IMG/VR virus record: IMGVR_UViG_3300020183_000011
Length of the DNA: 64,000 bases
Origin: a virus
Strand: one strand, 5' to 3'
Under the pieces are notes generated by a model. The model worked only from the letters and a program-made list of their open reading frames with translations. It was not told the origin of the DNA and ran no database searches. Positions within the stretch are counted from its first letter, which is position 1. Every line of letters starts with the position of its first letter. This document shows, in pieces, positions 1,669 to 17,737 of the stretch. The position numbers were made by a program, and so were the translations under genes.

Positions 1669-1676
1669 TATAAATA
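1669..1676 (+). promoter_or_regulatory. T4-type late promoter
   Basis: TATAAATA 4 nt before ATG 1681. Confidence 0.85.
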
Positions 1677-1680
1677 ACCA

Positions 1681-2670
1681 ATGGACATCATATCATTTAT
1701 AAAAAAATCTCTAGCACAAGTTACAGTAACTGCAGATAAAAAAGATATTGTAGTTAAATCAAAGGATAGAGAAAAGACTAAAGCAGCTCTAGAGAAGGCT
1801 CTTAAAGCCAAGAACATAAAGTTTAAGAGTGTATTTAAGAAAAGTAAATCTTCAAGCTTAGACGTGCTTGAGGTCTCTGGCTATGCTGGCGATATCATAT
1901 TTAAACCAATCATTCAAAAGGGAGCTGGAGGGGTTGGTTTCGAAAAAGAACTTAAACTCGATCTTGAAAACTACTTTAATGGTGCAAATAAAAAAGACCT
2001 AAAACATGGAGATGTTTTAGCTGAGCTAGAAAAAGTATTAAAGATGACCCAGCGTTCAGGATACAAAGTAATCCATGAAGGATCTAAAAATCAAAAGAGA
2101 CTATTAACATATTCTCCAGGTAAACTATCAGTAAGTAACTCGACAGGAGTTACACTAACAGACTTAACTTTAGAAAAGGCTGGCAAAAAAGTATACCTAT
2201 CTCTTAAGATGTCTAAGTCATACTATATCTTATCAGCATCTATATTCAATTACTTTTTAGATAAAAAACTTAACTCATCACTATGCGAGTATTTAGGACT
2301 TGATGGGGCAATGATGGGTGGGTTTGGTAAAGAGTATTATTGTGTTACTAAAAAACCAAACTATAATAGAGTAAGAGCAAACATAGAAAAATTCTTGTCT
2401 GTAGCTTATGGTTCAAACGTAGTTATAGTTCACAAGAAGATGATGAACAATGTCATGGTATCTGATATCAAGTCATCAGCTTCAGTTAAGGTATCAGATC
2501 TTGATGCTGAATCATATATCTATCCTGAAGTAGGTAAACGTAAGTATGCTGCCATCAAATTTAACGCTGACATCAATAAGCATAAATATATAGTTAATTT
2601 CCAATTTCGTGGAACCACGGCCACTGACACGGGCCCTAAATACCTCAGGATTTTAATGGAAAGGTTGTAA
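1681..2670 (+). CDS. Basic hypothetical protein, possible PD-(D/E)XK-like nuclease fold
   Basis: 329-aa Lys-rich ORF; G..FEKE ... TDLTL ... YLSLK pattern. Confidence 0.45.
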   Translation: MDIISFIKKSLAQVTVTADKKDIVVKSKDREKTKAALEKALKAKNIKFKSVFKKSKSSSLDVLEVSGYAGDIIFKPIIQKGAGGVGFEKELKLDLENYFNGANKKDLKHGDVLAELEKVLKMTQRSGYKVIHEGSKNQKRLLTYSPGKLSVSNSTGVTLTDLTLEKAGKKVYLSLKMSKSYYILSASIFNYFLDKKLNSSLCEYLGLDGAMMGGFGKEYYCVTKKPNYNRVRANIEKFLSVAYGSNVVIVHKKMMNNVMVSDIKSSASVKVSDLDAESYIYPEVGKRKYAAIKFNADINKHKYIVNFQFRGTTATDTGPKYLRILMERL

Positions 2671-2729
2671 CAATTCGTTACAAACTGTTACAATTTGGTA
2701 ACACCTTTAATTAAGATGTATGGTATAAT
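2667..2729 (+). promoter_or_regulatory. Four phased GTWACA boxes overlapping a promoter with a weak -35 and extended -10
   Basis: GTAACA 2667, GTTACA 2677, GTTACA 2687, GTAACA 2698; TGGTATAAT at 2721-2729. Confidence 0.6.
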
Positions 2730-2746
2730 AAGAATATAGAGAATTT

Positions 2747-3364
2747 ATGCTCAATTTTAAAGAATATATAAAAGAACAACAGGAATTTAAGCCAGGTTAC
2801 CTAACCATATTTGACATAGATGACACTCTATTCCATACGACTGCCAAGATCATAATACGTAAGTCTGGTAAGGCTATAAAGAAGCTTACTAGTGGTGAGT
2901 TTAATACCTATAAATTAGGTCCTGGAGAGTCCCCAGACTTCTATGAGTTCGAAGATGCAGAGAAGTTCAATAAAGAATCTAAGCCAATCACTAAGATGTT
3001 TAATAAGGCTAAGGCCCTCTTAGCTGATACCAAGAAGCATCCAAACAACAAAGTAATCATAGTCACAGCAAGGCCAAACCTAGACGATAGGGAAACCTTC
3101 TTAAATACATTTAGGAAGTTTAACTTTGACATCGATAAGGTTCGAGTAGAAAGGGCTGGAAGGATCAGTTCTTTAAACGCGGCCCAAAGTAAAGCTGTCA
3201 TCATCAATAACTACTTGAAAACAAAACAGTTTGACAAAGTTAGGCTGTTTGACGATAGTATAAATAATCTTAATGAGTTTCTCAAGTTAGAGAAACATTT
3301 CCCAAGCATTAAATTTACTGCTTGGCATGCACATACAGATGGGACAGTGAGACAAGTCAAATGA
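2747..3364 (+). CDS. HAD-superfamily phosphatase with capsid-targeting-like N-terminus
   Basis: IFDIDDTLF (DxDxT), IVTAR, LFDD motifs; N-terminus MLNFKEYIKE. Confidence 0.8.
   Translation: MLNFKEYIKEQQEFKPGYLTIFDIDDTLFHTTAKIIIRKSGKAIKKLTSGEFNTYKLGPGESPDFYEFEDAEKFNKESKPITKMFNKAKALLADTKKHPNNKVIIVTARPNLDDRETFLNTFRKFNFDIDKVRVERAGRISSLNAAQSKAVIINNYLKTKQFDKVRLFDDSINNLNEFLKLEKHFPSIKFTAWHAHTDGTVRQVK
3259..3266 (+). promoter_or_regulatory. Late promoter inside the HAD gene
   Basis: TATAAATA about 95 nt upstream of ATG 3361. Confidence 0.6.
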
Positions 3365-4545
3365 TTAAGTTTACAGAATTCTTAACAGAAGCCGCAGATG
3401 ACGGCAAATTAAAGCATATCCACCATCCAGAGGATCGTCCACTGATGCATGGTAAAAAGGGGTTTGAACATGCCTTTGGTGCTTTAAGTCAAGCACATGA
3501 ACACTTAAAGTCTGGTAAGAAGAGCACTGATATGACCATGAAGTATGATGGCTCTCCAGCTATTGTATTCGGTCATCACCCAAAGACAGGTAAGTTCTTC
3601 GTAGCTTCTAAGTCTGCATTCAACAAGAACCCAAAGATTAACTATTCTTTAGAAGACATCGAACGTAATCACGGTCATGCTCTAGGTCTTGTACAAAAAC
3701 TATCTGCAGCATTAGAACACCTACCTAAAGTATCACCTAAGAAGGGTGTATTCCAAGGTGACATGATGTTTAGTCACGGAGATGTGGTGCATAACCCAAA
3801 CGGATCAGCTTCATTTACACCGAACACCATCACTTACTCTGCTCATGGTACAGAAGCTAACAATATTAAGAAAGCAAAGGTTGGTGTAGTCGTACACCAA
3901 CAGTATCGTGGATTAGATTTACATACTATGAAGGCTAGTCCTAATATCGAACATAAGTTTAAAGCACATCCAGATGTATGGCATAAAGGTGCAGAACATG
4001 ATACATCGTTCACTAACTACTCGCCTAAGTCACAACTAGAATTTAATAAACACATGGAGAAAGCTAAGGCTATCCATGATACACATCATAAGACGATGTA
4101 TCCGCTTACAGAGCCTCATCATGGAGAAGGCGGCCATCTAGCTACATATATAAACAAAACGGTCAGGAACGATGAGAAGCCAACACCACGTGGCTTTCAA
4201 CAGCATATCCTTGACAGATCACAAGCATCACAAGATAAACTTAAGACTGCTGCAGCTGCACAGAAGAAACAAGCTGAGGCAAGATCACACGTTGATCATA
4301 TACAGAAAAACAAAGAACACTATGATAATTTATTGAAGATGCACCAGCATCTAGCAGCGGCAAAGAACACGTTGGTGTCAGCGCTTAATGCCCATCCCGG
4401 TACATTAAGTCATCATATCAATGGTAAACCAACTGCACCTGAAGGTTTTGTAGTACACCATCAGAACGAGCCAACTAAGTTGGTTAATCGAGCAGAGTTT
4501 AGTAAAGCAAACCTTTTAAAAGGAAAAAAGAATGTTAACATTTAA
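3361..4545 (+). CDS. Conserved T4-like protein (DUF6267-like) with ATP-dependent ligase/nucleotidyltransferase motifs
   Basis: MKYDGSP (motif I KxDG), VFQGD (III), EGFVV (IV), KLVNR (V); N-terminus MIKFTEFLTE. Confidence 0.65.
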   Translation: MIKFTEFLTEAADDGKLKHIHHPEDRPLMHGKKGFEHAFGALSQAHEHLKSGKKSTDMTMKYDGSPAIVFGHHPKTGKFFVASKSAFNKNPKINYSLEDIERNHGHALGLVQKLSAALEHLPKVSPKKGVFQGDMMFSHGDVVHNPNGSASFTPNTITYSAHGTEANNIKKAKVGVVVHQQYRGLDLHTMKASPNIEHKFKAHPDVWHKGAEHDTSFTNYSPKSQLEFNKHMEKAKAIHDTHHKTMYPLTEPHHGEGGHLATYINKTVRNDEKPTPRGFQQHILDRSQASQDKLKTAAAAQKKQAEARSHVDHIQKNKEHYDNLLKMHQHLAAAKNTLVSALNAHPGTLSHHINGKPTAPEGFVVHHQNEPTKLVNRAEFSKANLLKGKKNVNI

Positions 4546-4822
4546 AGAGTATCTATTAGAGTATGCGATCGACGCTAAAGGTCATAAGTCTTCTACAGGC
4601 GGGTTGACTAAGAAAGGTGTTGATGCATACAACAGAGAAAACCCTGGCAGCAACTTAAAGATGGCCGTAACTACAAAACCATCTAAGTTAAAACCTGGAA
4701 GCAAAGCAGCAGGCCGACGTAAGTCATTCTGTGCTCGTATGGGTGGAGTCAAAGGCCCAATGAAGGACGAGAACGGTAAACCAACAAGGAAGGCACTTGC
4801 CTTAAGGAAATGGAATTGCTAA
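4532..4822 (+). CDS. Small basic conserved phage protein (DUF6321-like)
   Basis: GGLTKKGV...RRKSFCARM...ALRKWNC; N-terminus MLTFKEYLLE. Confidence 0.75.
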   Translation: MLTFKEYLLEYAIDAKGHKSSTGGLTKKGVDAYNRENPGSNLKMAVTTKPSKLKPGSKAAGRRKSFCARMGGVKGPMKDENGKPTRKALALRKWNC

Positions 4823-5421
4823 ACTTTAAAGAATACTTAAAAGAAGAAACTGATGCTAAGCACCATGTCTTAGCATTTGGTCGTATGAACCCACCTACAA
4901 CTGGTCATATGAAGGTGATTGATAAGGTGCACGATGTTGCGGCTAAACATAGCGCTAGTCATGGCGTCGTTACTTCACATAGCCAAGACAAGAAGAAAAA
5001 CCCTTTGACTGCTGCACAAAAGTTGAAACATTTAAAACGTTATTCTCCACAGACAAACTTTAAAGCATCATCTCCTGAGAGTCCAACTATACTACATCAT
5101 GCTGCTGATCTACATAAGAAAGGTATAACACACTTACATGTGGTGGTTGGTTCTGATCGTAAGAAAGAGATGCATGATTTACTACATAAGTATAATAATA
5201 AAGAATCTGGTCATGGTCATTATAACTTTAAGAAGATAACTGTACATTCTGCAGGTAGTAGAGACCCAGATGCTGAAGGTACTAGTGGAGTATCAGGTAC
5301 TAAACAAAGAGAACATGCCGCGATAAAACACTTTGACAAGTTTAAGAAGGGCGTGCCTTCACATGTATCAGATGCACACGCTAAAGAATTAATGCACGAC
5401 GTACACCATGGGATGAAATAA
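4816..5421 (+). CDS. Cytidylyltransferase-like (HxGH nucleotidyltransferase) protein
   Basis: FGRMNPPTTGH, KKNPL, VVGSDR, SGTKQR; TTG 4816 gives MLNFKEYLKE (ATG 4810 is the alternative). Confidence 0.85.
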   Translation: MLNFKEYLKEETDAKHHVLAFGRMNPPTTGHMKVIDKVHDVAAKHSASHGVVTSHSQDKKKNPLTAAQKLKHLKRYSPQTNFKASSPESPTILHHAADLHKKGITHLHVVVGSDRKKEMHDLLHKYNNKESGHGHYNFKKITVHSAGSRDPDAEGTSGVSGTKQREHAAIKHFDKFKKGVPSHVSDAHAKELMHDVHHGMK

Positions 5422-5768
5422 TGAAACAACTAATCTTAGCATCACTATTATTAACTGGCTGTAGCTTCATCATGCCAGTACCACATGATCCAGCCGAAGC
5501 TGCAAAGCTCGTGGATGTTAAACAGAAGATGGAGACTCTAACCTGTGATGCTACAAAGGACTTCCCAAGATGGCAGTCAACCGTAGACGACCTTAGATGG
5601 TTAAACCTATACACAGAGTTTAGAGCAGACCCACAAGCAAAGACTATTGAGGAACTATATTTCGCAATCCAAAAGGCTAGGGACGGTTCAGTACCTTACT
5701 GTGAAGCCGCTTTAAAACTACAAAAGACTCGTATTCAAGTAATCGAGAAAGCATGGAAAGGAAGGTAA
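5421..5768 (+). CDS. Putative lipoprotein
   Basis: Signal peptide with lipobox LLLTG-C. Confidence 0.7.
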   Translation: MKQLILASLLLTGCSFIMPVPHDPAEAAKLVDVKQKMETLTCDATKDFPRWQSTVDDLRWLNLYTEFRADPQAKTIEELYFAIQKARDGSVPYCEAALKLQKTRIQVIEKAWKGR

Positions 5769-5769
5769 T

Positions 5770-6006
5770 ATGTCAGTATTAGACGACTTAAGAACGGCAA
5801 TGAAAGAGCCAGGCATCAAAGGTGCATTGGCCCAACAACTACATGACATCACAGAACAATACAATGATGGCATCCTTACAGAAGCTGAATTTAAAGACTT
5901 GGTAGAACAGATTGCTGATGTCCAAGCTAACGATGAGCTTGCAGGAGATGAGGTAACTTCAAGATGGGTCGTAAATATAACTAAAGTGATTCTCTCGGCC
6001 GTATAA
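5770..6006 (+). CDS. Hypothetical acidic protein
   Basis: 78-aa ORF with SD (GAAGG) in an operon. Confidence 0.7.
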   Translation: MSVLDDLRTAMKEPGIKGALAQQLHDITEQYNDGILTEAEFKDLVEQIADVQANDELAGDEVTSRWVVNITKVILSAV

Positions 6007-6009
6007 ATA
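6002..6009 (+). promoter_or_regulatory. Late promoter
   Basis: TATAAATA. Confidence 0.8.
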
Positions 6010-6038
6010 ATAGTAATACCTTATATAGATGGAATAAA

Positions 6039-7712
6039 ATGAAGAACTATAGACAGCTTATCAAAGAACTGCCTTCCAAGACGCTTATAATGTCTGTTGG
6101 AAGCTTTAACCCGCCTACTCTCCAAAGCGAGATGGCTTTCAAGCTAGTCGAGAAGCTAGTTGAGACTCATAATGCTGACCATGTCATATACGTGACAGAG
6201 GAAGCAAACAACCTCCCAGTAGACAGAAAGATACACTTCCTTGATCTCATGTTCAATAAGTTAAACTTTCGTCCATTGTCAGAGGAGAAGCTAGTATCAG
6301 AGATCGGTAAGTTAAAGTCAAGGTATAAGAACGTCATCGTAGTTACTTCAGAAGACAAGTCTAAGCTATACGAGTCAATGCAAGTGGTATCCACAGGATA
6401 CCCTGACGTAGAAACACCTAAGCTCCGTTCAATGGTTACCAAAGGTGACTATCAAACATTTAAGAAAAACCTCCCGTCCTCAGTAAGAGACATCGATGCA
6501 AGACGCATGATGAACGAAATGAGACAAGCTCAAGGGCTTGAGTTCATCAAGGAAGACGTTAAGTTCTCTGTAGACATGTTAAGAGACAAGTACTTTAAAG
6601 GTGAGATCTACCACATCGGTGACATCGTTGAGTCTGCTGGACAACAATATGAAATCATGGACCGTGGATCAAACTACCTAGTGGTCGTCAATAACACAGG
6701 TGACTTATCACGTAAATGGGTAAAAGACGTGACTCTAGTCGAAGCATGCTGGAAAGGCTATAAAGCAAAAGGCCTCAAGAAAAAGGGCAACAAGATGGTG
6801 CCTAACTGTGTACCTGAGGAAGTCAAAGAAGACACAGACCCACAAGTATCCTATAAAGGATACACTACAAAGAACATGCATCACAGCGCTGACTTAGCTA
6901 AGACATTCAAGCTCGCTTCAGCAGACGCTAAGGATCCAATAGCTATGCTTAATGCTATCAAGACTACAGACACATACTTAGAGCTACATAACGATAGAGG
7001 TGATAATCCTACACTCGACCAGCTCAAGACATGGAAACATGCACACATCAAAGCTAAAGAAGCCTTACAAAAGATCGGTCACTTTGATGCACACCAAGAA
7101 CACTGGCTACAAAGCTCAGAAGCTCTAGACAAGATGTTGATACCTCATGCTTCGAAGTTAAGAGAAGAGTTAGACATCGGTAAGCATAGTAATCAAAACA
7201 TCGAGCGTTCTGTAACCATGTTCCAAAACTTCATGAAGATGGGTAAAAAAGAACCTGGCTTCATCAAAGACCCTAAATCAGGCGACTTAGCTAAACCTAT
7301 AGAGCCAAACGTTAGTCAACAGATAGATGACTTAGAGCCAAATTGGCCAAGACATGTACAGACAAAAGTTGGTCATACGTTAGCTACGCGAGACCACCTT
7401 CGCAGACAAAAAGTGCAATACGCTACAGAATCTACAAACATATTGGTAGGTGACATGATGGATGAGGACTTTGCTGTTAAGTTTTCTGAAAGTCATGGCG
7501 GAGAAGTAGGAGACGGTATAGGAGATGAAGACATAACGAAAGTTAAGTCGATACCACCACACCTTGTACCTAAAAAAGAATTCGGTGATGTTTCTAAACA
7601 AAAGGGTAAAGGGTTCTCTGCATTGTTTAATGGCAAAGAGAACGTGGACTTTGACTTTCAAACATTTAAAAACTATAGGTTGCAAAGAGAACAAGGAAAA
7701 AAGAATAAATAG
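6039..7712 (+). CDS. Multidomain protein with a degenerate cytidylyltransferase-like N-terminal domain
   Basis: VGSFNPPT (His of HxGH lost); ACWKGY...KMVPNCV module; N-terminus MKNYRQLIKE. Confidence 0.65.
   Translation: MKNYRQLIKELPSKTLIMSVGSFNPPTLQSEMAFKLVEKLVETHNADHVIYVTEEANNLPVDRKIHFLDLMFNKLNFRPLSEEKLVSEIGKLKSRYKNVIVVTSEDKSKLYESMQVVSTGYPDVETPKLRSMVTKGDYQTFKKNLPSSVRDIDARRMMNEMRQAQGLEFIKEDVKFSVDMLRDKYFKGEIYHIGDIVESAGQQYEIMDRGSNYLVVVNNTGDLSRKWVKDVTLVEACWKGYKAKGLKKKGNKMVPNCVPEEVKEDTDPQVSYKGYTTKNMHHSADLAKTFKLASADAKDPIAMLNAIKTTDTYLELHNDRGDNPTLDQLKTWKHAHIKAKEALQKIGHFDAHQEHWLQSSEALDKMLIPHASKLREELDIGKHSNQNIERSVTMFQNFMKMGKKEPGFIKDPKSGDLAKPIEPNVSQQIDDLEPNWPRHVQTKVGHTLATRDHLRRQKVQYATESTNILVGDMMDEDFAVKFSESHGGEVGDGIGDEDITKVKSIPPHLVPKKEFGDVSKQKGKGFSALFNGKENVDFDFQTFKNYRLQREQGKKNK
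7704..7711 (+). promoter_or_regulatory. Late promoter variant
   Basis: AATAAATA 4 nt before ATG 7716. Confidence 0.6.
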
Positions 7713-7715
7713 AAA

Positions 7716-8168
7716 ATGGACAAACTAATAGCATCTTTAAAAGTAATCCTTGGTAATACGTTCGTCATGTATTTCAAGACCCATTCATATCATTGGAACG
7801 TTGAAGGCATAAACTTCAGTCAGTATCATGACTTCTTTGCCACGATCTATGAAGACTTATATGGTGCTGTAGACCCATTTGCAGAAGAGATTAGAAAGCT
7901 AGATACTTATGCTCCTATCAGCTTGATGGAGTTATATAACTATAAGACTATCACAGAAGACGCTACAAAACCAACAACTATCCATGAGATGTTAGTCAAC
8001 TTGTTGATGGCAAACACAGAATTATTATCTGCTTTGTCTGCAGCCTTTGATACAGCTACAGCTGAAAAACAACAAGGCCTTGCAAACTACATAGCAGATC
8101 GTATGGCCGCACATAAGAAACATGAATGGATGTTAACAGCATCACTTAAGAACATTGGAGGAGTGTAA
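7716..8168 (+). CDS. dps: Dps / DNA-binding ferritin-like protein
   Basis: HSYHWNVEG..F...H..F...YE......D..AE ferroxidase signature; H..H.WML C-terminus. Confidence 0.93.
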   Translation: MDKLIASLKVILGNTFVMYFKTHSYHWNVEGINFSQYHDFFATIYEDLYGAVDPFAEEIRKLDTYAPISLMELYNYKTITEDATKPTTIHEMLVNLLMANTELLSALSAAFDTATAEKQQGLANYIADRMAAHKKHEWMLTASLKNIGGV

Positions 8169-11100
8169 TGAAGACGCTAAAAGAGTTTAACTTACAGATA
8201 AACGAAGTATTAAGAGCATCTGATCCCATTGATAAATGGATCTCAGACTTCGTACACTCTAAGAATGCTAAGTTTGCTGGTAAGACTACTAAAGAACGCA
8301 TCGAGATGGCAAAAGGTGCATACTATGGTGCACAAAAACATAGGATGACTAGAATGGAATCGGTAGCAGTATCGCAAAATAGTACAGCTAAAGTAGATAT
8401 GAGAGAAGCCGCGCGTGAACATTTAGTACATGTTAACGATGGTTCTAAGTATGACGAAGAGCCTCATGAAAAAGATGTAGAGCATATCATGGCTGGTGTT
8501 AAACAACATGGTGGTGAACACGCTGGTGCATCTGACAAAGGTGTATTCTTTAAGTTCAAATCAAAAGAACATGCTGATGCATTTAAAGCTCATGCCAATA
8601 AATGTCCTAATAAATCATGCGACGCAGAGCATGTTACAGAAGGATATGAGAATGACATGGTTGATAAGAAAAAGGTATTGAACCCTCCAATTCCACTAAC
8701 ACAAAAGAAAAAGGCTGTTAAAGACTTCCTCAAGAAAGAGGAAGCAGAACTAGACGAAGGTAAAGTATACGACCCTATCACTAAGAAGATGGTAGCTAGT
8801 AAACCTATCAAAGTTCAAGCTGGTGGAGGTGCTACAAGAAACGGTGTTCCTGTAGAGACTGGTCCATCTAAATACAAGAGTAAGCTGCCTATGAGTAAAG
8901 CTGCTGCAGTATTAGCTGCAGAAGAGATAGGAATAGATGAAGGCGATAACGGTTTAGCAGCAAAAGCTAAGAAGTCTGGTGTATCCTTATCTACACTCAA
9001 GACAGTATACAAGAGAGGCGTAGCCGCATGGAACTCCGGTCATCGTCCAGGTACAACGCCTGCACAATGGGGTATGGCACGCGTTAACTCATACATCACA
9101 AAGGGTAAAGGTACATATCACGGAGCCGATAAAGACCTACGTGAAGACGCACGTCTTGATAAGAAAGAATACCATAAAGGTATGAGTGCTGCTACCGCAA
9201 AAGCTCGTGTAGCACATTGGAAAAAAGCAGATAAGATGTCTGACAGCAATCCAAAGGCATATAAGCCAGCACCTGGTGACAAGACTGCAAAGACTACACC
9301 AAGCGTACATACTAAGAAGTACCATGCTATGTACGGAGAAGCTAAAGAAGGTAAAAATAAGTGGCACATCTATGATACTAAGACAAGAGAAGTTCATAGT
9401 ACATATAATAATAAGAATGTAGCCATACGTAAGTATGAAGAACTAAACGATAAGCATAAGGGTTATGATAGTCCAGGTGGTTTAGTACACTCTAAATATG
9501 GTCTTAGACAAGAGCTACAGAAAGAAGAGACAGAGATCAATGAGATATCTAAATATACATTAGCTAGATATATCGATAAGGCTGCACAAGACGTACATGA
9601 TAAAGCTTTAGCTGCTGGTTCACATCATGGCGGTAAGAGCTATAAAGAATTCATGAAGAACTATACTAAGTCTGGTAAAAGACAAGCTGGTATCACTAGA
9701 GCTGCAGTTAAGCTTGCTACACAAAAAGAAGAGGTACAAGTAGACGAAGCTATCGCTAAGAAGTTGCCAGTACAGCATGCAGTGAATGCTGTAACTAAGA
9801 CATTAGGTTCACAAGCTGCTACAAGGTTCTTAGGTCATCTAAAACCTGGTACAGATAAACATACATCATGGGATAAAGTAAACGATGCTTTGATGAAGCA
9901 AGGTGTACAAACACATCACATCGCTTCTATAGCACAAAAGACTTCTCATGAAAACATGAATGAATCAAGAGGTCATAAAGTATTAGCAACGTTCTTTAAG
10001 AACAGAGAAGTTGCACAAAGAGCTTTTACTGGCCAAAATCAACCTAAAGCTGCTGAACCAAAAGAAACTGATAAAAATAAGTTGCCTATGAGTAAAGCTG
10101 CAGCAGTATTAGCAGCAGAAGATCAATACACTTCAGAGTATAAGATCAAGTATTATGTAGACCCGATTACTGGTGAGAACAAACAAAGAAAGATTAGGCC
10201 TCACCGTGTCAACTTTAAAAACAGTAAGATGCATGGAGAACCAGTACAACAAGATGCACAAGCAGATTACGGCATGAAAGAAGGATATGTAGCAGAAGGT
10301 GGTTTCGATAACTATCATGAGATAGCTAAGGAACTTGTTAAACGTCATGGTAAGAACGTTGATTCTGGTCATATCAATGACATAGCTGGCGAGAGAGATA
10401 CTCACAGAGGTCTTGATCATTCCGAAGTCATGCATCATGTTAACAAGATACTAAACAAAGAAGTTAAAGAAGGTGATGAGTATGATGAAGTATGGAAAGA
10501 ATACAAAGGAAAAACATTTAAAAAGGAAAGTCGTATGATTAATTTTAAAGACTACTTAAAAGAAGCTTTATCAGCTAAACAAAAGAAGATCGCTGCTATC
10601 GCTGGCGATAAAGATAAGATCGATGCTGATGATCTAGCTGCTTTAAGAGCTGGTAAGAAGCCTGTAGAAGAAGCTAAGAAGTGCATGGACGAAGATGACA
10701 TGGACGAATCAGGTCTTCGTATGGCTGCACACGCGGCTCATAAAGCTGGTAAGAAAGAGTTTGAGTTTCAAGGCAAGACTTATCCAGTTAAAGTACAAAA
10801 AGAAGGCGTGTTAAAGCCTGAACTTGAAAAAGGTTTCCCTGCACGTGGTGTAAAGACTGGTGCTTCTGCCCCAAAAGGTACAACATACATGCCTAAGAAA
10901 AATGTTAAAGAAGAAGTAGAACAGATCGACGAGTTATCTAAGAAGACACTAGGTTCTTATGCGCATAAAGCTGTCGATGACACGCAAGATAAAGTTCATG
11001 ATGCTTATGATTCAGGAACACCAACAAGACATGAACTTGAGGTGCAAGGTGGAAAAAATAATGATGGAAAATACGGATATAAACCTCTTCAAAATAGATT

Positions 11101-11791
11101 AACTGGTGTAGCAAGAGCTGCAAAAAGATTAGGTGATAAAGAAATTTCTAAGCGCACTGAAAAATCAGTAGCTCACCATCTTAAACAAAGATATCATTAT
11201 GATAATATGGATGATAGAAAGGCAGCCAATTCTGATAATGCTGCACGTCATCAATATTATCGCGCAAAAGATCATATTGAAAAAGCTTCAGGAGTTAAAG
11301 AAGAAGTAGAGTTAGACGAAGGTCGCATGAAAGAACTTGCAATGGATCTTAAAGATATGAGCCATGACGAGTTTCATAAACATTATGGTAAGCCTAAATC
11401 ATACTATGATCCATTAAACTTCAAGAAGCCAGTACAAAAAGGCCATGAAATGGATCGTGCTAAAGCTTTAGCTCAACGTGGTATCCAATCTTTATCTAAA
11501 GAAGAAGTAGAACAAGAAATGTCACCATACCTAAAAGCAACACTTGCAGTTATGGATGAATCAAAGTACGACGATTATAAAGATGCATTAAGATCTAAGA
11601 AAGCTACTCAATCTGCATATGATAAAGACTTTAAGCCAGACACAACTCATCCACATATTCAAGTGGTTAAGGGTACACAGTATGGCGGAGAGAACCAAAA
11701 AGATGATGACTATGATGAGAAGCCTGATGAACCAAAAGAGAAGCGCGGACGTGGCAGACCAGCGGGATCTAAGTCAGGTGCTAGAGTATAA
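8168..11791 (+). CDS. 1207-aa modular, charged protein; probable internal head polyprotein
   Basis: Repeated KEE(V/A/T)xxxxE linkers; N-terminus MKTLKEF; internal MINFKDYLKE; DUF5824-like module (SGVSLSTLKTVYKRG..AW...RP....QW..ARVNSY). Confidence 0.65.
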   Translation: MKTLKEFNLQINEVLRASDPIDKWISDFVHSKNAKFAGKTTKERIEMAKGAYYGAQKHRMTRMESVAVSQNSTAKVDMREAAREHLVHVNDGSKYDEEPHEKDVEHIMAGVKQHGGEHAGASDKGVFFKFKSKEHADAFKAHANKCPNKSCDAEHVTEGYENDMVDKKKVLNPPIPLTQKKKAVKDFLKKEEAELDEGKVYDPITKKMVASKPIKVQAGGGATRNGVPVETGPSKYKSKLPMSKAAAVLAAEEIGIDEGDNGLAAKAKKSGVSLSTLKTVYKRGVAAWNSGHRPGTTPAQWGMARVNSYITKGKGTYHGADKDLREDARLDKKEYHKGMSAATAKARVAHWKKADKMSDSNPKAYKPAPGDKTAKTTPSVHTKKYHAMYGEAKEGKNKWHIYDTKTREVHSTYNNKNVAIRKYEELNDKHKGYDSPGGLVHSKYGLRQELQKEETEINEISKYTLARYIDKAAQDVHDKALAAGSHHGGKSYKEFMKNYTKSGKRQAGITRAAVKLATQKEEVQVDEAIAKKLPVQHAVNAVTKTLGSQAATRFLGHLKPGTDKHTSWDKVNDALMKQGVQTHHIASIAQKTSHENMNESRGHKVLATFFKNREVAQRAFTGQNQPKAAEPKETDKNKLPMSKAAAVLAAEDQYTSEYKIKYYVDPITGENKQRKIRPHRVNFKNSKMHGEPVQQDAQADYGMKEGYVAEGGFDNYHEIAKELVKRHGKNVDSGHINDIAGERDTHRGLDHSEVMHHVNKILNKEVKEGDEYDEVWKEYKGKTFKKESRMINFKDYLKEALSAKQKKIAAIAGDKDKIDADDLAALRAGKKPVEEAKKCMDEDDMDESGLRMAAHAAHKAGKKEFEFQGKTYPVKVQKEGVLKPELEKGFPARGVKTGASAPKGTTYMPKKNVKEEVEQIDELSKKTLGSYAHKAVDDTQDKVHDAYDSGTPTRHELEVQGGKNNDGKYGYKPLQNRLTGVARAAKRLGDKEISKRTEKSVAHHLKQRYHYDNMDDRKAANSDNAARHQYYRAKDHIEKASGVKEEVELDEGRMKELAMDLKDMSHDEFHKHYGKPKSYYDPLNFKKPVQKGHEMDRAKALAQRGIQSLSKEEVEQEMSPYLKATLAVMDESKYDDYKDALRSKKATQSAYDKDFKPDTTHPHIQVVKGTQYGGENQKDDDYDEKPDEPKEKRGRGRPAGSKSGARV
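8881..10122 (+). repeat. 45-bp direct repeat (8881-8925 and 10078-10122) encoding KLPMSKAAAVLAAE
   Basis: Near-identical nucleotide copies. Confidence 0.9.
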
Positions 11792-11794
11792 ATA
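11787..11794 (+). promoter_or_regulatory. Late promoter
   Basis: TATAAATA, then AAGGAG SD and ATG 11821. Confidence 0.85.
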
Positions 11795-11820
11795 ACTAAT
11801 TACATTTAAGGAGTAATAAA

Positions 11821-12747
11821 ATGGCTTTATGGGGAAAATCAGATACTTTAGCGGCATCGCCAAAGTATGTAACTAGAAAGGCGGTGTTCGATGCGCAGAG
11901 CAAAGTTAGTTCAGCAAATGACACTATCGATCTATCAAGTGCAAATACAAATTTTTCAACAGGTGATGGCGTTGTTTACACTGGTGCTAGCGGCATTGGT
12001 TTAACACAAGACACATCATACTATGTGATGAGACAAACAGATAACACAATTAAGTTAGCAACTACAGAAGCTGGCGCTAAAGCTGGTGCAACTGGTATTA
12101 ACCTAACAGCTGGTGCAACAGGTGCTATTGGTTTCTTACAACGTAATGCTGAAGGTAATGAATCTACTGCAGCAGGTAACGGCGACCATATCAACAACGG
12201 AAGCGACCTCTACTTCATCGATGCTGACGAAGCTCAACAAGCAGAGAACAAAGCTCGCGGATTAACAGGTCCTGGTTGGTGGTTATATCGTTCATGGACA
12301 AATGCAGACGGTTCAGTACAACATAGAGCAGAATGCTTGATCGCTATGGGCGCATACTCAGGTGCTACAGGTGTTGGTACATACCAAGCTCAAACTGGTG
12401 ATGCTTCAGATGATTCAGTTTTAGTAGATGCTACAGTATCTATTACTACACAACCATCTAATGTTTCTGTAACTGCTCCAGCTACAGCTTCATTCTCAAT
12501 AGTTGCTGCAATTGCTGGCGCTGGTTCATTGACATATCAATGGCAAATCCAACAATCAGGTGTTGGTGCATTTGCTGACGTAACTACTGGTTCAGGTGGC
12601 ACAACTGCTACATATACAACTGCTGCAACTGCAGTAGCTGCAGGAGCTGGTGCTACAAACGGTGATAAGTTCCGTTGTATCGTTGGTGCTTCAACAGGTA
12701 ATACAGACGTTACATCTAATGCTGTAACATTAACAGTAACAGCTTAA
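11821..12747 (+). CDS. Virion structural protein with a C-terminal Ig-like domain
   Basis: MALWG start, PGWW motif, SITTQP...LTYQWQ...NGDKFRCIV...TSNAVTLTV Ig signature; late promoter and terminator. Confidence 0.75.
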   Translation: MALWGKSDTLAASPKYVTRKAVFDAQSKVSSANDTIDLSSANTNFSTGDGVVYTGASGIGLTQDTSYYVMRQTDNTIKLATTEAGAKAGATGINLTAGATGAIGFLQRNAEGNESTAAGNGDHINNGSDLYFIDADEAQQAENKARGLTGPGWWLYRSWTNADGSVQHRAECLIAMGAYSGATGVGTYQAQTGDASDDSVLVDATVSITTQPSNVSVTAPATASFSIVAAIAGAGSLTYQWQIQQSGVGAFADVTTGSGGTTATYTTAATAVAAGAGATNGDKFRCIVGASTGNTDVTSNAVTLTVTA

Positions 12748-12748
12748 T

Positions 12749-12778
12749 AGAGTAGGGGAGGAAACTCCCCCCTCTTTT
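12749..12778 (+). terminator. Rho-independent terminator
   Basis: GGGGAG-GAAA-CTCCCC hairpin, then CTCTTTT. Confidence 0.75.
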
Positions 12779-12781
12779 AAT

Positions 12782-13159
12782 ATGAACCAAGTGTTGACAG
12801 AAGATAATTTTTTACAGTATGCTATGCATCATTATGACAATAGCCAATGTTATTCGTTGGAAGAGTTTAATGATGACTTAAAGAGGTTTTTATATCTTAA
12901 GAAGTTGTTTAGTAGATATAAACATGAGTGTGATTTAAAAGAGAACTTAATACTAAATCATCTCATAGTAATCTATAACATATTTGGAGATAGTTCTACT
13001 AATATGTTGTTCTTTAAGATAGAGGAAGAGTATTGGGACACATTAGTAACTTTCTTGGTATTCCTTAACAGGATGCCTGAAGATATACCTCAATACGGAA
13101 TAAAATTATCAGAGATTAAACTTGACGATCATATTATACAAACGCTTAGGAAGATTTAA
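12782..13159 (+). CDS. Conserved T4-like hypothetical protein
   Basis: YAMHHYDN..C...EEF..DLKRF.Y.K.LF...LILNH.I..YN.FG pattern. Confidence 0.75.
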   Translation: MNQVLTEDNFLQYAMHHYDNSQCYSLEEFNDDLKRFLYLKKLFSRYKHECDLKENLILNHLIVIYNIFGDSSTNMLFFKIEEEYWDTLVTFLVFLNRMPEDIPQYGIKLSEIKLDDHIIQTLRKI

Positions 13160-13737
13160 TGTCGCAAGTAATAGATAACATAATAGCTTACAAAGTACTC
13201 ACCATGTTGGTTAAACCCTTCAGGGAGACTGATGCCTATAGATTGGGCATCATCGATGCAAAAGGAAAAAATCTCATAAAGCCTTCTGTTCTTTCCTCAC
13301 AGGAAGAAAAGAACTCTTACACGTTCCTACATCGATTAGTCTTTAACATGAAAAAGATAATCAACAAACTGCCGGGTGGAGAAAGTAAATTAAAGAGTCT
13401 AGCTGCGGCTTTCTTTTTAATCAAAGAATACTATGAAAATAATACTCGTTCTACATCGATGATGGAGGAAAAGTATAATAAACTAATAGAGTCTAATGCG
13501 ATACTAGCAGAAGAAACTATTATCATAGAGAAGTACATGAAAGACATAGATGAAGATGGTGGTGCGGGTGGCGTTTCTGGAGGAGGTGGAGCTAGCGCTG
13601 CTCCAGTTGCAAACGTAACAGGCTCGATGGTATCTACAGACATCCCATTACCTAAAAAGAAAGATTTAGAAAAATACAAGAAGACGAATCAAGCTGGTGT
13701 TGTAGCTATGACTCGTCGTAACAATAAGGTGTTATAA
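13159..13737 (+). CDS. Conserved T4-like hypothetical protein
   Basis: PF.ETDAY.LGIID.KG ... YT.LHRLVFN.K. Confidence 0.75.
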   Translation: MSQVIDNIIAYKVLTMLVKPFRETDAYRLGIIDAKGKNLIKPSVLSSQEEKNSYTFLHRLVFNMKKIINKLPGGESKLKSLAAAFFLIKEYYENNTRSTSMMEEKYNKLIESNAILAEETIIIEKYMKDIDEDGGAGGVSGGGGASAAPVANVTGSMVSTDIPLPKKKDLEKYKKTNQAGVVAMTRRNNKVL

Positions 13738-13738
13738 T

Positions 13739-14344
13739 ATGTGGTTATTGAGCTTATTACCAGATAGTTTACTCTATGGATTTATCCTATCTGTCATGGG
13801 TATCGGAGCAGCACTCTTTATATTTGGTACGTTTACAGTATTCCTGCCTCTAGTTAAAGGTTGGGGTATGTTGATGAGAACGATCGGTACATTACTATTG
13901 ATAGGTAGCGTATACTTATATGGTGGTTATGGTACAGAGATGAAGTGGAGAGCTGAAGCCGCTAAACTAAAAGCAGATATGGATCGTAAGGTCGCATTAT
14001 CTGAAAAGAATTCAAAACAAGTAGTCACAAAATATATTGAAAAAGTAAAGGTAGTTAAGGAGAAAGGTAATGTCATTATTAAAGAAGTCCCTAAATATAT
14101 CACTAAAGATGCTGACGCTAACTGCGTTGTGCCTAAGTCTTTTGTCTTGCTCCACGATTCTGCCGCAAAAAATGAAGTTCCCGACTCCACCCAAGGAGTT
14201 GATGGAGCCGCCAGCGGAACTAAACTCTCTACCATCGGAGAAACAATAACGATCAACTACAATAACTATCATCAGTTATCAGAAAGATTGAAAGCGTTAC
14301 AAGACTGGGTTAGTTCACAAGAAAGAATCTATAATGGCAAATGA
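13739..14344 (+). CDS. Membrane protein, Rz/i-spanin-like
   Basis: N-terminal TM helices, coiled coil, VVTKY..KVKVVKEKG..IIKEVP.Y.....D..C..P..F..LHD.AA. Confidence 0.6.
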   Translation: MWLLSLLPDSLLYGFILSVMGIGAALFIFGTFTVFLPLVKGWGMLMRTIGTLLLIGSVYLYGGYGTEMKWRAEAAKLKADMDRKVALSEKNSKQVVTKYIEKVKVVKEKGNVIIKEVPKYITKDADANCVVPKSFVLLHDSAAKNEVPDSTQGVDGAASGTKLSTIGETITINYNNYHQLSERLKALQDWVSSQERIYNGK

Positions 14345-14717
14345 TTTAGAACAGTTAGAACGTATAGTCGAAAAGCTAGATATATCGATAGATAAGCTTA
14401 CAGAAGTTAGCAATAACGTAAGTAAGTTACTAGCAGTGCATGATACTAGATTAAACGTCATAGAGAAAGATACCGTGCGAAACGAAGACGACATACGAGA
14501 TATTCATGTAAAGATGGATAATATAGCTAAAGAGATCAATGCAAAGTTGGACGAATCTATGCGTAGTAGTGTAGAGGGCCATGCTAAGATCCAAGCTGCT
14601 ATCGAAGACAAGCTTAAAGGCATCGATGCCCGCGTACGAGTATTAGAAGTATGGCGTTGGTTAGTTATTGGCGGTGCACTTGCTATTGGATACCTAGTTA
14701 ATAAGTTGTATAAATGA
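14334..14717 (+). CDS. Coiled-coil protein with C-terminal TM helix (XhlA/holin-like)
   Basis: Heptad repeats then RVRVLEVWRWLVIGGALAIG. Confidence 0.55.
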   Translation: MANDLEQLERIVEKLDISIDKLTEVSNNVSKLLAVHDTRLNVIEKDTVRNEDDIRDIHVKMDNIAKEINAKLDESMRSSVEGHAKIQAAIEDKLKGIDARVRVLEVWRWLVIGGALAIGYLVNKLYK

Positions 14718-15421
14718 AAACCCTTAATGAATTAAAGCTTCAATTACAATACCATAAACAGTTAAATCCAAAGTTATGGGACGGCTTTGTATTGAAACCT
14801 CAGATCAGAGCAAAGCTATTACAGTTCGCAGAAGTATGGAGAGAATATGCTAAGATTCCTAAGTCAGCTGTTAAAGAAGTTATCATGCTCGGCGGAAACG
14901 CTAACTACAATTACACTGATAAGTCTGACATTGATGTACATGTGGTTGTTGATAAGTCTTTAATATCTAAAGATAACCCATTACTAGACGACTACCTACA
15001 AGATAAGAAACAGATGTGGACTATGGCACATAAGATTACCATTCTTGGATATGGGCTAGAACCATATGCACAAGATATATCGGTTGAATATCCAAAACAA
15101 CAAGGCGTCTATTCATTGACAAAGGATGAATGGCTAGCAAAGCCAGAATTTGTTGGTGATGATATGTTGAAAGACCCATACCTTAAGAAGAAGGTTAAGT
15201 TCTATATGAAGATGATCGACGACATGATTAAAGGCCATGTTGATATTGATTCAGTAAAACACTTCAAAGAAAAACTCAGAGACATGCGTGGAGTTGCTAT
15301 TAAGAAAGGTGGAGAGTTCTCATTCGAAAACCTAGTATTTAAAGAACTACGCAATCAAGGCTATTTAGACAAACTATCAGTATACCAAAGAACAGAACAA
15401 GACCAAGCATTAAGTTTATAA
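14714..15421 (+). CDS. Pol-beta-like nucleotidyltransferase
   Basis: LGGNANYNYT..SDIDVHV (G[GS]...DxD) and E.Y.QD; N-terminus MKTLNE. Confidence 0.8.
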   Translation: MKTLNELKLQLQYHKQLNPKLWDGFVLKPQIRAKLLQFAEVWREYAKIPKSAVKEVIMLGGNANYNYTDKSDIDVHVVVDKSLISKDNPLLDDYLQDKKQMWTMAHKITILGYGLEPYAQDISVEYPKQQGVYSLTKDEWLAKPEFVGDDMLKDPYLKKKVKFYMKMIDDMIKGHVDIDSVKHFKEKLRDMRGVAIKKGGEFSFENLVFKELRNQGYLDKLSVYQRTEQDQALSL

Positions 15422-15432
15422 TAAAGGATATC

Positions 15433-15807
15433 ATGGAAAATACTAATGAATTTTGGGGTTATCATCTAATATTGGACTGTCACGCATGTGATGTTCCTAG
15501 CATCAAGAGTTATGATAATGTTCATAACTGGATTAAGACTCTAGTTAAAGATATAGATATGGAACCTATTGGTGAGCCTCGTATCGAATATACAGCAGCA
15601 GAGTTTCCCGACAAGGCAGGATTTACAGCAGTACAGATCATAGTAACATCAAGTATAGTAGCACACTTCATTGACTCTACGGGTGATGTCTATATAGATG
15701 TATTCTCATGCAAGCCGTTTGATAATGCTGTAGTCATCTCCTCAATCAACAAAGCATTTGCTCCTAAGAAAGTCAGAGCTAATTACCTAACCAGACAAGC
15801 TGGATAA
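15433..15807 (+). CDS. speD: S-adenosylmethionine decarboxylase proenzyme
   Basis: WGYHLILD, G.T....I.TS.I..H, Y.DVFSCK motifs. Confidence 0.85.
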   Translation: MENTNEFWGYHLILDCHACDVPSIKSYDNVHNWIKTLVKDIDMEPIGEPRIEYTAAEFPDKAGFTAVQIIVTSSIVAHFIDSTGDVYIDVFSCKPFDNAVVISSINKAFAPKKVRANYLTRQAG

Positions 15808-16723: not shown

Positions 16724-17737
16724 ATGTTATACATCGATTCTAAATACGTAGGACAAATCTCCTACAAACTCCGTAACTTTAAAAAGAAAGCCGACTACTA
16801 TTGGAACTTTAGTTGTCCGATATGTGGTGACTCAAAGAAAAATACTTTAAAAGCTCGCGGATATGTATTTAAAAATGATAATAGATTAGTATACAAGTGC
16901 CATAATTGTGGTATATCAACTTCTGTAGGTAACTTGATAAAGCAATTAGATCCTATCATGTATAACGAATACGTGTTAGAAAGATATAAAGAATCAACTT
17001 CGCACCACACACCTCATGCCCAGCTTAAATTGGAGACACCTACTGTTTCCGTTGAGTTAAAAGATAATATATTAGATAAGTTGGATCCGATAGAAGTATT
17101 ACCTATCAGTCATCCAGCAATACAGTACCTTATATCACGTAAGATACCTAAAGATAAATGGAAGTTACTTTATTACACAGATACATTTAAAGCATACACT
17201 AATTCTGTAAAGTTTCATTTCACAAACACCAAAGACGATCATCCTCGTATCGTCATACCATACTTTAATGAACATGGTAAAGTATTTGCGTTTCAAGCTA
17301 GAGCACTTGGCGGTGAACAACCTAAGTATTACTCTATTAAGATAGACGATAAAGAAGAGAAGATCTATGCTTTAGATCGTGTAGATTATTCTAAGAGGAT
17401 ATATGTTACAGAAGGTCCTATCGATTCTTTATTTGTGCCTAACTGTATAGCAGTCTCAGGCGCATCATTTGATACACCAACTATTAAATCATTAGCTAGC
17501 AATGCTACGCTTATCATGGATAATGAACCAAGGTCTAAAGAGATATGTAAGTTCATAAACAAGTTGATTGAATCCAATTATACAGTATGTCTATGGCCTG
17601 ACACAGTAAGAGAAAAAGATATCAATGAGATGATCATGGCTGGTAAGACTATCGAGTCAATCATGGACACTATAAATACAAATACATTCCAAGGAATGGA
17701 AGCAAAGCTTAAATTTACACAGTGGAGAAAGTGTTGA
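16724..17737 (+). CDS. 61: DNA primase (T4 gp61-like)
   Basis: CPICGDS...KARG...CHNC zinc finger; TEGPIDS, DNEPR, KDINEM TOPRIM motifs. Confidence 0.97.
   Translation: MLYIDSKYVGQISYKLRNFKKKADYYWNFSCPICGDSKKNTLKARGYVFKNDNRLVYKCHNCGISTSVGNLIKQLDPIMYNEYVLERYKESTSHHTPHAQLKLETPTVSVELKDNILDKLDPIEVLPISHPAIQYLISRKIPKDKWKLLYYTDTFKAYTNSVKFHFTNTKDDHPRIVIPYFNEHGKVFAFQARALGGEQPKYYSIKIDDKEEKIYALDRVDYSKRIYVTEGPIDSLFVPNCIAVSGASFDTPTIKSLASNATLIMDNEPRSKEICKFINKLIESNYTVCLWPDTVREKDINEMIMAGKTIESIMDTINTNTFQGMEAKLKFTQWRKC

Follow-up and report, generated by a model that had tools for sequence, protein, structure and literature searches.

The stretch of DNA analysed here, which we call the window, comprises 64,000 nucleotides of viral sequence (IMG/VR record IMGVR_UViG_3300020183_000011) from an aquatic T4-like myovirus. 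Between the genes for a gp41-type helicase (246-1640) and a gp61-type primase (at 16724) it carries a block of genes (1669-12770) in which otherwise unrelated products begin with a common ten-residue tag. We argue that this block probably encodes head cargo that is loaded by a T4-type capsid targeting sequence (CTS) and packaged in the virion. Genes for gp59, gp32 and the baseplate proteins gp5 and gp25, assigned by eye from their N-terminal sequences, also lie in the window. Judged by protein similarity, the phage is a relative of the pelagiphage and cyanophage family Kyanoviridae, in which its closest isolates are Phage C48C1, Methylophilales phage Melnitz, Pelagibacter phage HTVC008M and cyanomyoviruses; Stenotrophomonas phage DLP_6 is also among the nearest isolates by this measure. 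Searched at the near-DNA level, the block had no match among 50,697 phage records.

On the plus strand, a terminator-like hairpin after the helicase gene (1643-1660) forms the upstream boundary of the block and a second such hairpin (12755-12770) its downstream boundary. A TATAAATA late-promoter box stands at its head (1669-1676), and its genes abut or overlap each other on the plus strand. The tag occupies residues 1-10 of a HAD phosphatase (2747-3364), whose DxDxT motif lies at FDIDDT, and of a DUF6267 protein (3361-4545) with a predicted RNA/DNA-ligase-type nucleotidyltransferase fold and a helical insert. It also begins a small basic DUF6321 protein (4532-4822), a 203-residue HxGH nucleotidyltransferase of cytidylyltransferase-like and NMNAT-like type (4810-5421) and a 557-residue paralogue of that enzyme (6039-7712), which has a degenerate motif and extra modules common to other cluster proteins. 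A variant of the tag opens a 1207-residue lysine-rich protein built of several modules, DUF5824 among them (8168-11791), within which an in-frame internal copy of the tag, preceded by AAAGGA, is found at 10535-10564. Further TATAAATA boxes of the plus strand stand at 3259-3266 (~100 nucleotides upstream of 3361), at 6002-6009 (upstream of 6039) and at 11787. Four phased GTWACA boxes (2665-2729) precede the HAD gene, immediately 5' to a TATAAT-like box; they also form an inverted repeat and may constitute a binding site for a regulator. A sigma-70 promoter scan gave no enrichment over shuffled sequences.

A six-frame scan with the pattern M-x-x-[FY]-x-[EQD]-[FYL]-[IL]-x-E gave six matches, five of them N-terminal (2747, 3361, 4532, 4810 and 6039) and one internal (10535). 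All start at a methionine on the plus strand and fall within 8 kb, and 50 shuffles yielded no match (0.32 expected for the seven-residue core). An earlier note on this DNA had drawn attention to unrelated proteins with a common leader, and the observation holds up: the carriers are a HAD phosphatase, DUF6267, DUF6321, an HxGH enzyme, its degenerate copy and the DUF5824-containing protein, all of them unrelated folds save for the two HxGH copies. The list of leaders given there stands for the six matches and needs amending beyond them. The 8168 protein carries a variant with a three-residue insertion that ends in I-N-E, where its relatives have the plain ten-residue form. A Pol-beta-type nucleotidyltransferase (14714-15421) was rejected as a carrier: its start, MKTLNE, is without the aliphatic-x-Glu end, and the gene lies outside the block and its transcription unit. 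The copy at 4810 has two extra residues; a TTG codon at 4816, 6 nucleotides after AAGGAA, gives the exact 10-mer and is probably the true start of this protein.

The tag is widely conserved. In a related set of 80 IMG/VR contigs, chosen around DUF6267 proteins 61-87% identical to that of the window, homologues of the cluster proteins carry it in 77 loci, at three to five proteins per locus; the earlier note had held that a leader missing from homologues would speak against its proposal. The 122 tag sequences from these 77 loci, all distinct at the DNA level, give the consensus M-K-S/T-F-K-E/Q-F/Y-L/I-K-E. Synonymous codon use at the conserved residues is wide (12 codons at position 8, for example), so that selection acts on the peptide and not on the RNA. 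The same residues emerged from a MAFFT alignment, unconstrained by the pattern, of 90 database-called DUF6267 proteins of 31-75% identity, 69 of which have the N-terminal extension. At position 4, 62 of 69 proteins have F and 64 have F or Y; F or Y occupies position 7 in 63 of 77, L or I position 8 in 73 of 78, and E position 10 in 71 of 78. Positions 2, 3, 5, 6 and 9 vary freely, leaving 4, 7, 8 and 10 as the only conserved ones.

Presence of the tag is labile. About one quarter of the DUF6267 family, like the protein of cyanophage P-HM2, begins straight at the first conserved domain motif, and among HAD relatives of 57-83% identity the tag may be intact, truncated or absent. In two otherwise good structure models, moreover, the tag is the sole N-terminal stretch with a predicted local distance difference test score (pLDDT) below 50. 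Low pLDDT and labile presence among close relatives together mark it as a portable add-on that lies outside any fold. One HAD relative has Asp at tag position 10, with others truncated or untagged (L007:1922-2521, L004:1982-2596, L003:2577-3173). In a complete 174-kb relative the tag occurs on the proteins of this cluster only, the other ~270 open reading frames (ORFs), called by a simple script, being without it; one extra ORF (151299-151724) matches a looser pattern, apparently by chance. Behind the tag, cyanophage cytidylyltransferases and a number of DUF6267 proteins share another conserved module, ..L-x-L-x3-G-[YF]-G-R-Y.. (L101:4257-5420, L103:1183-2412; P0242, P0250, P0263).

The internal proteins IPII and IPIII of T4 both begin with MKTYQEFIAE. 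According to PMC9026906 (section 2.6, citing Mullaney and Black 1996), residues 1-10 of IPIII are enough to direct encapsidation; mutagenesis described in the same source assigns residues 4 and 7 mainly to targeting and residues 8 and 10, the L/I-x-E protease motif, to processing, with Asp10 blocking cleavage while targeting is kept. The tag's four conserved positions coincide exactly with the IPIII determinants. Like the T4 CTS, which is removed by gp21 from IPII and IPIII and also from IPI and Alt, the tag is a ten-residue N-terminal stretch running from Met1, with aromatic residues at 4 and 7, an aliphatic residue at 8, Glu at 10 and Ala/Glu-rich residues next, and it sits on otherwise unrelated proteins in a T4-like lineage with an S77 protease. 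A gene for such a gp21-type protease (Peptidase_S77) was found in all four large related contigs (E 1e-32 to 1e-38). The end of the 3361 tag, ..FLTE/A, resembles the region ..SFLTE/AE of T4 gp23, where gp23 is cut, after Glu65; the capsid protein of the complete relative has ..ALFE/AAP at the corresponding place. The two systems differ in their cargo, which here consists of enzymes (ligase fold, HAD, HxGH) and multi-module polyproteins and in T4 of small basic anti-restriction proteins. The present lineage is also distant from the T-evens, and cleavage and injection would be carried over to it by analogy. On this sequence comparison, identification of the tag as a T4-type CTS is well supported.

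Published virion proteomes connect the tag to packaged proteins. Purified S-SM1 virions contain the putative cytidylyltransferase T4-GC190 at 25 peptide counts, above the portal protein (Sullivan et al. 2010, PMC3037559, section 26, Table S8), together with the products of neighbouring genes T4-GC1453, 1454, 1455, 425 and 426 (PMC3037559). The S-SM1 gene product concerned, SSM1_190, begins with the tag (M-K-K-F-S-A-F-L-N-E) and shares 39% identity with the 4810 protein of the window (E 4e-38). The adjacent DUF6267 protein, SSM1_189, is untagged, and its cluster T4-GC71 has no proteomic entry for S-SM1 in PMC3037559. An NMNAT-like protein detected in S-SCSM1 virions (PMC9602691) likewise begins with the tag, so that tagged HxGH homologues are on record from CsCl-purified virions of two phages (PMC3037559, PMC9602691), and PMC10665884 reports a cytidylyltransferase in S-CREM2 virions. 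The tagged N-terminal module is common to 331 cyanophage records. The 4810 protein is homologous to the NMNAT-like or cytidylyltransferase proteins of cyanomyovirus virions (S-SM1 T4-GC190, S-SCSM1 ORF91, S-CREM2 ORF154 and that of S-CBWM1) and shares with them the N-terminal tag and a gene order downstream of gp41, but differs as a minimal version of 203 residues, without their extra modules. By analogy with these homologues in other phages, the earlier note's suggestion that the tagged proteins are packaged gains support.

The passages on virion enzymes in PMC3037559, PMC9602691 and PMC10665884 name no loading signal, and the phrase 'internal protein' is absent from the Sullivan text (PMC3037559). 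Literature on the 'capsid targeting sequence', taken by title and abstract, contained no cyanophage or pelagiphage study; we found no publication linking the tag to these virion enzymes, nor any literature on DUF6267. What is new here is the match of the tag to the T4 mutational determinants and its link to published virion proteomes.

In the explanation that we favour, the aromatic residues at positions 4 and 7 would dock each protein on the scaffolding core during prohead assembly, as in T4 IPII and IPIII, and the disordered propeptide, M-x-x-F-x-x-[FY]-[LI]-x-E, would then be cut after Glu10 by the gp21-type (S77) prohead protease. The mature proteins would remain in the head once it is filled with DNA, and would be injected together with the genome. 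Cargo delivered in this way would comprise DUF6267, the HAD phosphatase, two HxGH nucleotidyltransferases (one of them apparently active, the other degenerate) and the small lysine-rich modules DUF6321 and DUF5824.

Several observations weigh against this explanation. A TATAAATA box lies within ~100 nucleotides upstream of just two tagged genes, 3361 and 6039, so that the earlier placement of most leader genes under such late promoters holds for these two and not for the remaining ones, and the stretch before 2747, with its repeated GTWACA boxes, resembles an early-type promoter. No head genes and no head protease lie within the window. The virion evidence comes from homologues in other phages, S-SM1 and S-SCSM1, neither of them a close relative, with tag removal carried over from T4, and very few proteins underlie the association of the tag with presence in virions. 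Two S-SM1 virion proteins listed in the proteomic source, SSM1_188 and SSM1_191, are untagged, and the tag is therefore not the sole route into the virion. Finally, a permutation test for co-variation of the variable tag positions within genomes was null (observed value 0.24, permuted 0.22, with 135 of 2000 permutations reaching the observed value), and hence gives no signal of co-evolution with a receptor.

Some of these features would suit a different role, in which the tag is a docking peptide that brings the enzymes together in the cytoplasm of the infected cell, as a complex built perhaps on a common scaffold, and has no part in head loading. The location of the genes between those for the replication proteins gp41 and gp61, the early-type promoter-like sequence before 2747 and the frequent DUF6267-HxGH fusion, which suggests joint action, all fit such a complex. 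We nevertheless consider it improbable, as tagged HxGH homologues are reported from the CsCl-purified virions described above and the tag agrees with the T4 CTS wherever the latter's residues are functional, its end being the protease motif.

Within the cargo, the DUF6267 protein is likely to contain a ligase-type nucleotidyltransferase domain, as judged from its structure model. The AlphaFold2 model (pLDDT 94.3, predicted template modelling score 0.91) was compared with 48,161 chains using VIA-align, and its 16 best rows were all RNA or DNA ligases, at Z scores of 8.2 to 6.0, where ~8 counts as middling for this tool. They include NgrRnl (5cot, Z 8.2), REL1 (1xdn, 8.1), Trl1 (7.9), T4 Rnl2 (2hvq, 7.5) and T4 Rnl1 (9do4, 7.4), with 175-208 aligned residues. 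Ligases also rank top in a Foldseek search of the PDB, with weak E-values of 0.03 or worse. At the sequence level, Pfam gives DUF6267 only, a profile search of PDB sequences gives chance matches and no ligase, and hhalign of the DUF6267 family with T4 Rnl2 gives a probability of 0.1. Residues K61, D63 and G64 of a K61-x-D-G motif are each kept in at least 90% of 90 family members, and it is this near-invariance, combined with the uniformly ligase top rows of VIA-align, that makes the assignment likely.

The earlier note had read ligase-superfamily motifs I, III, IV and V in this protein. The modelled fold and the conserved KxDG bear out the first, while the conserved QGD (132-134), PEG (360-362) and K373..R377, placed by sequence conservation, are candidates for motifs III, IV and V. 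The comparison with Rnl1 and Rnl2 that it had called for is favourable in structure (Z 7.4 and 7.5) and unfavourable in the Rnl2 profile alignment. The DUF6267 model thus shares with the ATP-dependent nick-sealing RNA ligases (Naegleria NgrRnl, Trypanosoma brucei REL1, T4 Rnl2, T4 Rnl1 and fungal Trl1) an alignable nucleotidyltransferase domain and the KxDG motif, but differs from them in a helical insert of ~120 residues between candidate motifs, and in being without a recognisable OB or other C-terminal ligase domain and without a sequence-profile match.

The other assignments of enzymes in the earlier note stand for the HAD protein at 2747 and the HxGH protein at 4810. In the HAD protein, FDIDDT is invariant and the DD motif is kept. 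A Foldseek search with its model returned the Lem4 HAD domain first (E 2.7e-5), then AphA and MDP-1, with the Pnkp phosphatase lower, and its link to the latter is weak (phrog_415 at 2.3e-6; 4xru_D at E 1.2e-3). The 4810 protein matches PF01467 at 31.3 bits (cut-off 21), and both its TTGH and its SGTKQR motif are intact. In the 6039 paralogue, PTLQS replaces the HxGH motif, and from this loss it is probably inactive.

The 1207-residue protein (14.5% lysine) is a candidate polyprotein cut by the head protease. Linkers of the type E-[LI]-[DN]-E lie in it at positions 194, 456 and 1048, with further L/I-D-E sites at 256 and 920, and an acidic linker of the form E-E-[VA]-E-L-D-E recurs between modules of long lysine-rich cluster proteins in more than 15 relatives and in cyanophage P-HM2 (including L001:7761-9098). 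Plain [LI]-x-E is not enriched in tagged proteins, and only the extended acidic motif recurs. Some relatives encode the part downstream of the internal 10535 tag as a gene of its own, with the tag at its N-terminus. These linkers, the internal tag with its AAAGGA and the separate tagged gene are the grounds for the polyprotein reading; the acidic linkers would be candidate prohead-protease sites, probably cut by the same enzyme that would remove the tag.

The lysine-rich members of the set raise a second alternative, that the proteins are packaged but are mainly structural or DNA-condensing, their enzyme domains having no role after injection. DUF6321, DUF5824 and the 1207-residue protein are rich in lysine like the T4 internal proteins, and the paralogue at 6039 has lost its HxGH motif. 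Set against this is the strong conservation of catalytic motifs in the remaining enzymes, namely K61xDG in DUF6267, TTGH and SGTKQR in the 4810 protein and DxDxT and DD in the HAD protein, and we give this alternative a small chance. We rejected, as having almost no likelihood, the idea that the common N-terminus is an mRNA-level or translation-initiation element or an inherited duplicated gene start without peptide function: its codons have the A/T-richness often seen where translation starts efficiently, but they vary widely under a constant amino-acid pattern. The tag, moreover, is restricted to this one cluster in the complete relative, sits on unrelated folds and can be gained or lost independently of them.

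If the proteins are indeed head cargo, their associations offer hints as to what they do. Fusions of DUF6267 with the HxGH enzyme recur, with either partner first, and a 1145-residue protein of another phage (entry P0176) joins DUF6267, HxGH and a C-terminal Pol-beta-type nucleotidyltransferase whose domain is 37% identical to the window's 14714 protein over its full length (E 1e-43). Because of this Rosetta-stone fusion, the 14714 nucleotidyltransferase belongs to the functional set although it is untagged and, contrary to the earlier note, carries no valid leader. In relatives, a P-loop kinase of Zeta_toxin/AAA_33-like type, with weak similarity to polynucleotide kinase, is fused or adjacent to the HxGH enzyme (L066:12238-13881, L041:1291-3009, L099:6333-6995); no Walker A motif was found in the window's cluster. 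With no kinase in the window, neither an end-repair pathway nor a NadR-type NAD salvage pathway is complete here. The healing and sealing in the style of T4 Pnkp and Rnl1 that had been proposed is accordingly incomplete, for want of a polynucleotide kinase in the window.

Across the clade, ligase fold, HAD phosphatase, P-loop kinase and Pol-beta-type nucleotidyltransferase, partly fused, match the components of T4 Pnkp and Rnl1 tRNA repair and of eukaryotic PNKP/Pol-beta/Lig3 single-strand-break repair. The match to T4 differs in the absence of a kinase from the window, in that the T4 enzymes are not packaged, and in that the HAD protein is no less similar to AphA and Lem4 than to the Pnkp phosphatase. 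By analogy, ligase, phosphatase, kinase and nucleotidyltransferase recall nucleic-acid end repair through sealing of nicks or breaks, a reading that we put forward tentatively. The HxGH enzyme and kinase recall NadR-type NAD salvage, and a role in NAD or nucleotide handling is conceivable if doubtful; of the functions that the cargo might have, these two are the likeliest. It is possible rather than probable that the tagged enzymes, with the kinase and Pol-beta-type nucleotidyltransferase of relatives, form a virion-delivered repair or counter-defence kit that acts at DNA entry.

Untagged genes stand in and beside the block. The first gene of the block encodes a 329-residue protein (1681-2670, plus strand; phrog_8438), for which no tie was established to the same-position proteins of Melnitz, HTVC008M, S-SM1, P-HM2 and S-SCSM1. 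A lipoprotein with an LTGC lipobox (5421-5768) and a 78-residue ORF (5770-6006) lie inside the cargo block and are kept in relatives. A Dps/ferritin-like protein (7716-8168, plus strand; PF00210, E 1.7e-21) is encoded between two tagged genes, a position kept in the complete relative. The last gene of the block (11821-12747, plus strand), preceded by the TATAAATA box at 11787, encodes a homologue of the cyanophage virion structural protein T4-GC537, listed in Table S8 of PMC3037559. Beyond the block, the 14714 gene on the plus strand is followed by a SpeD-like S-adenosylmethionine decarboxylase gene (15433-15807; PF02675).

The tag offers a simple mechanism for the entry of NMNAT-like enzymes into cyanophage virions, in whose proteomes they have repeatedly been found unexplained. 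It would also allow the injected proteins of abundant aquatic myoviruses to be predicted from sequence alone, and foreign proteins could be loaded into these phages by means of it, as has been done with T4. The ligase fold assignment, for its part, covers a DUF6267 family of more than 2,000 members in public data, many of them capsid-tagged. Injected enzymes act before phage gene expression and are therefore prime candidates for early counter-defence or genome repair. Were the proposed kit to prove real, it might, for example, mend the entering phage genome where it is broken, seal host RNA that defence nucleases have cleaved, or restore NAD; no earlier injected system of this kind would be based on a ligase, and it would be widespread in aquatic T4-like phages.

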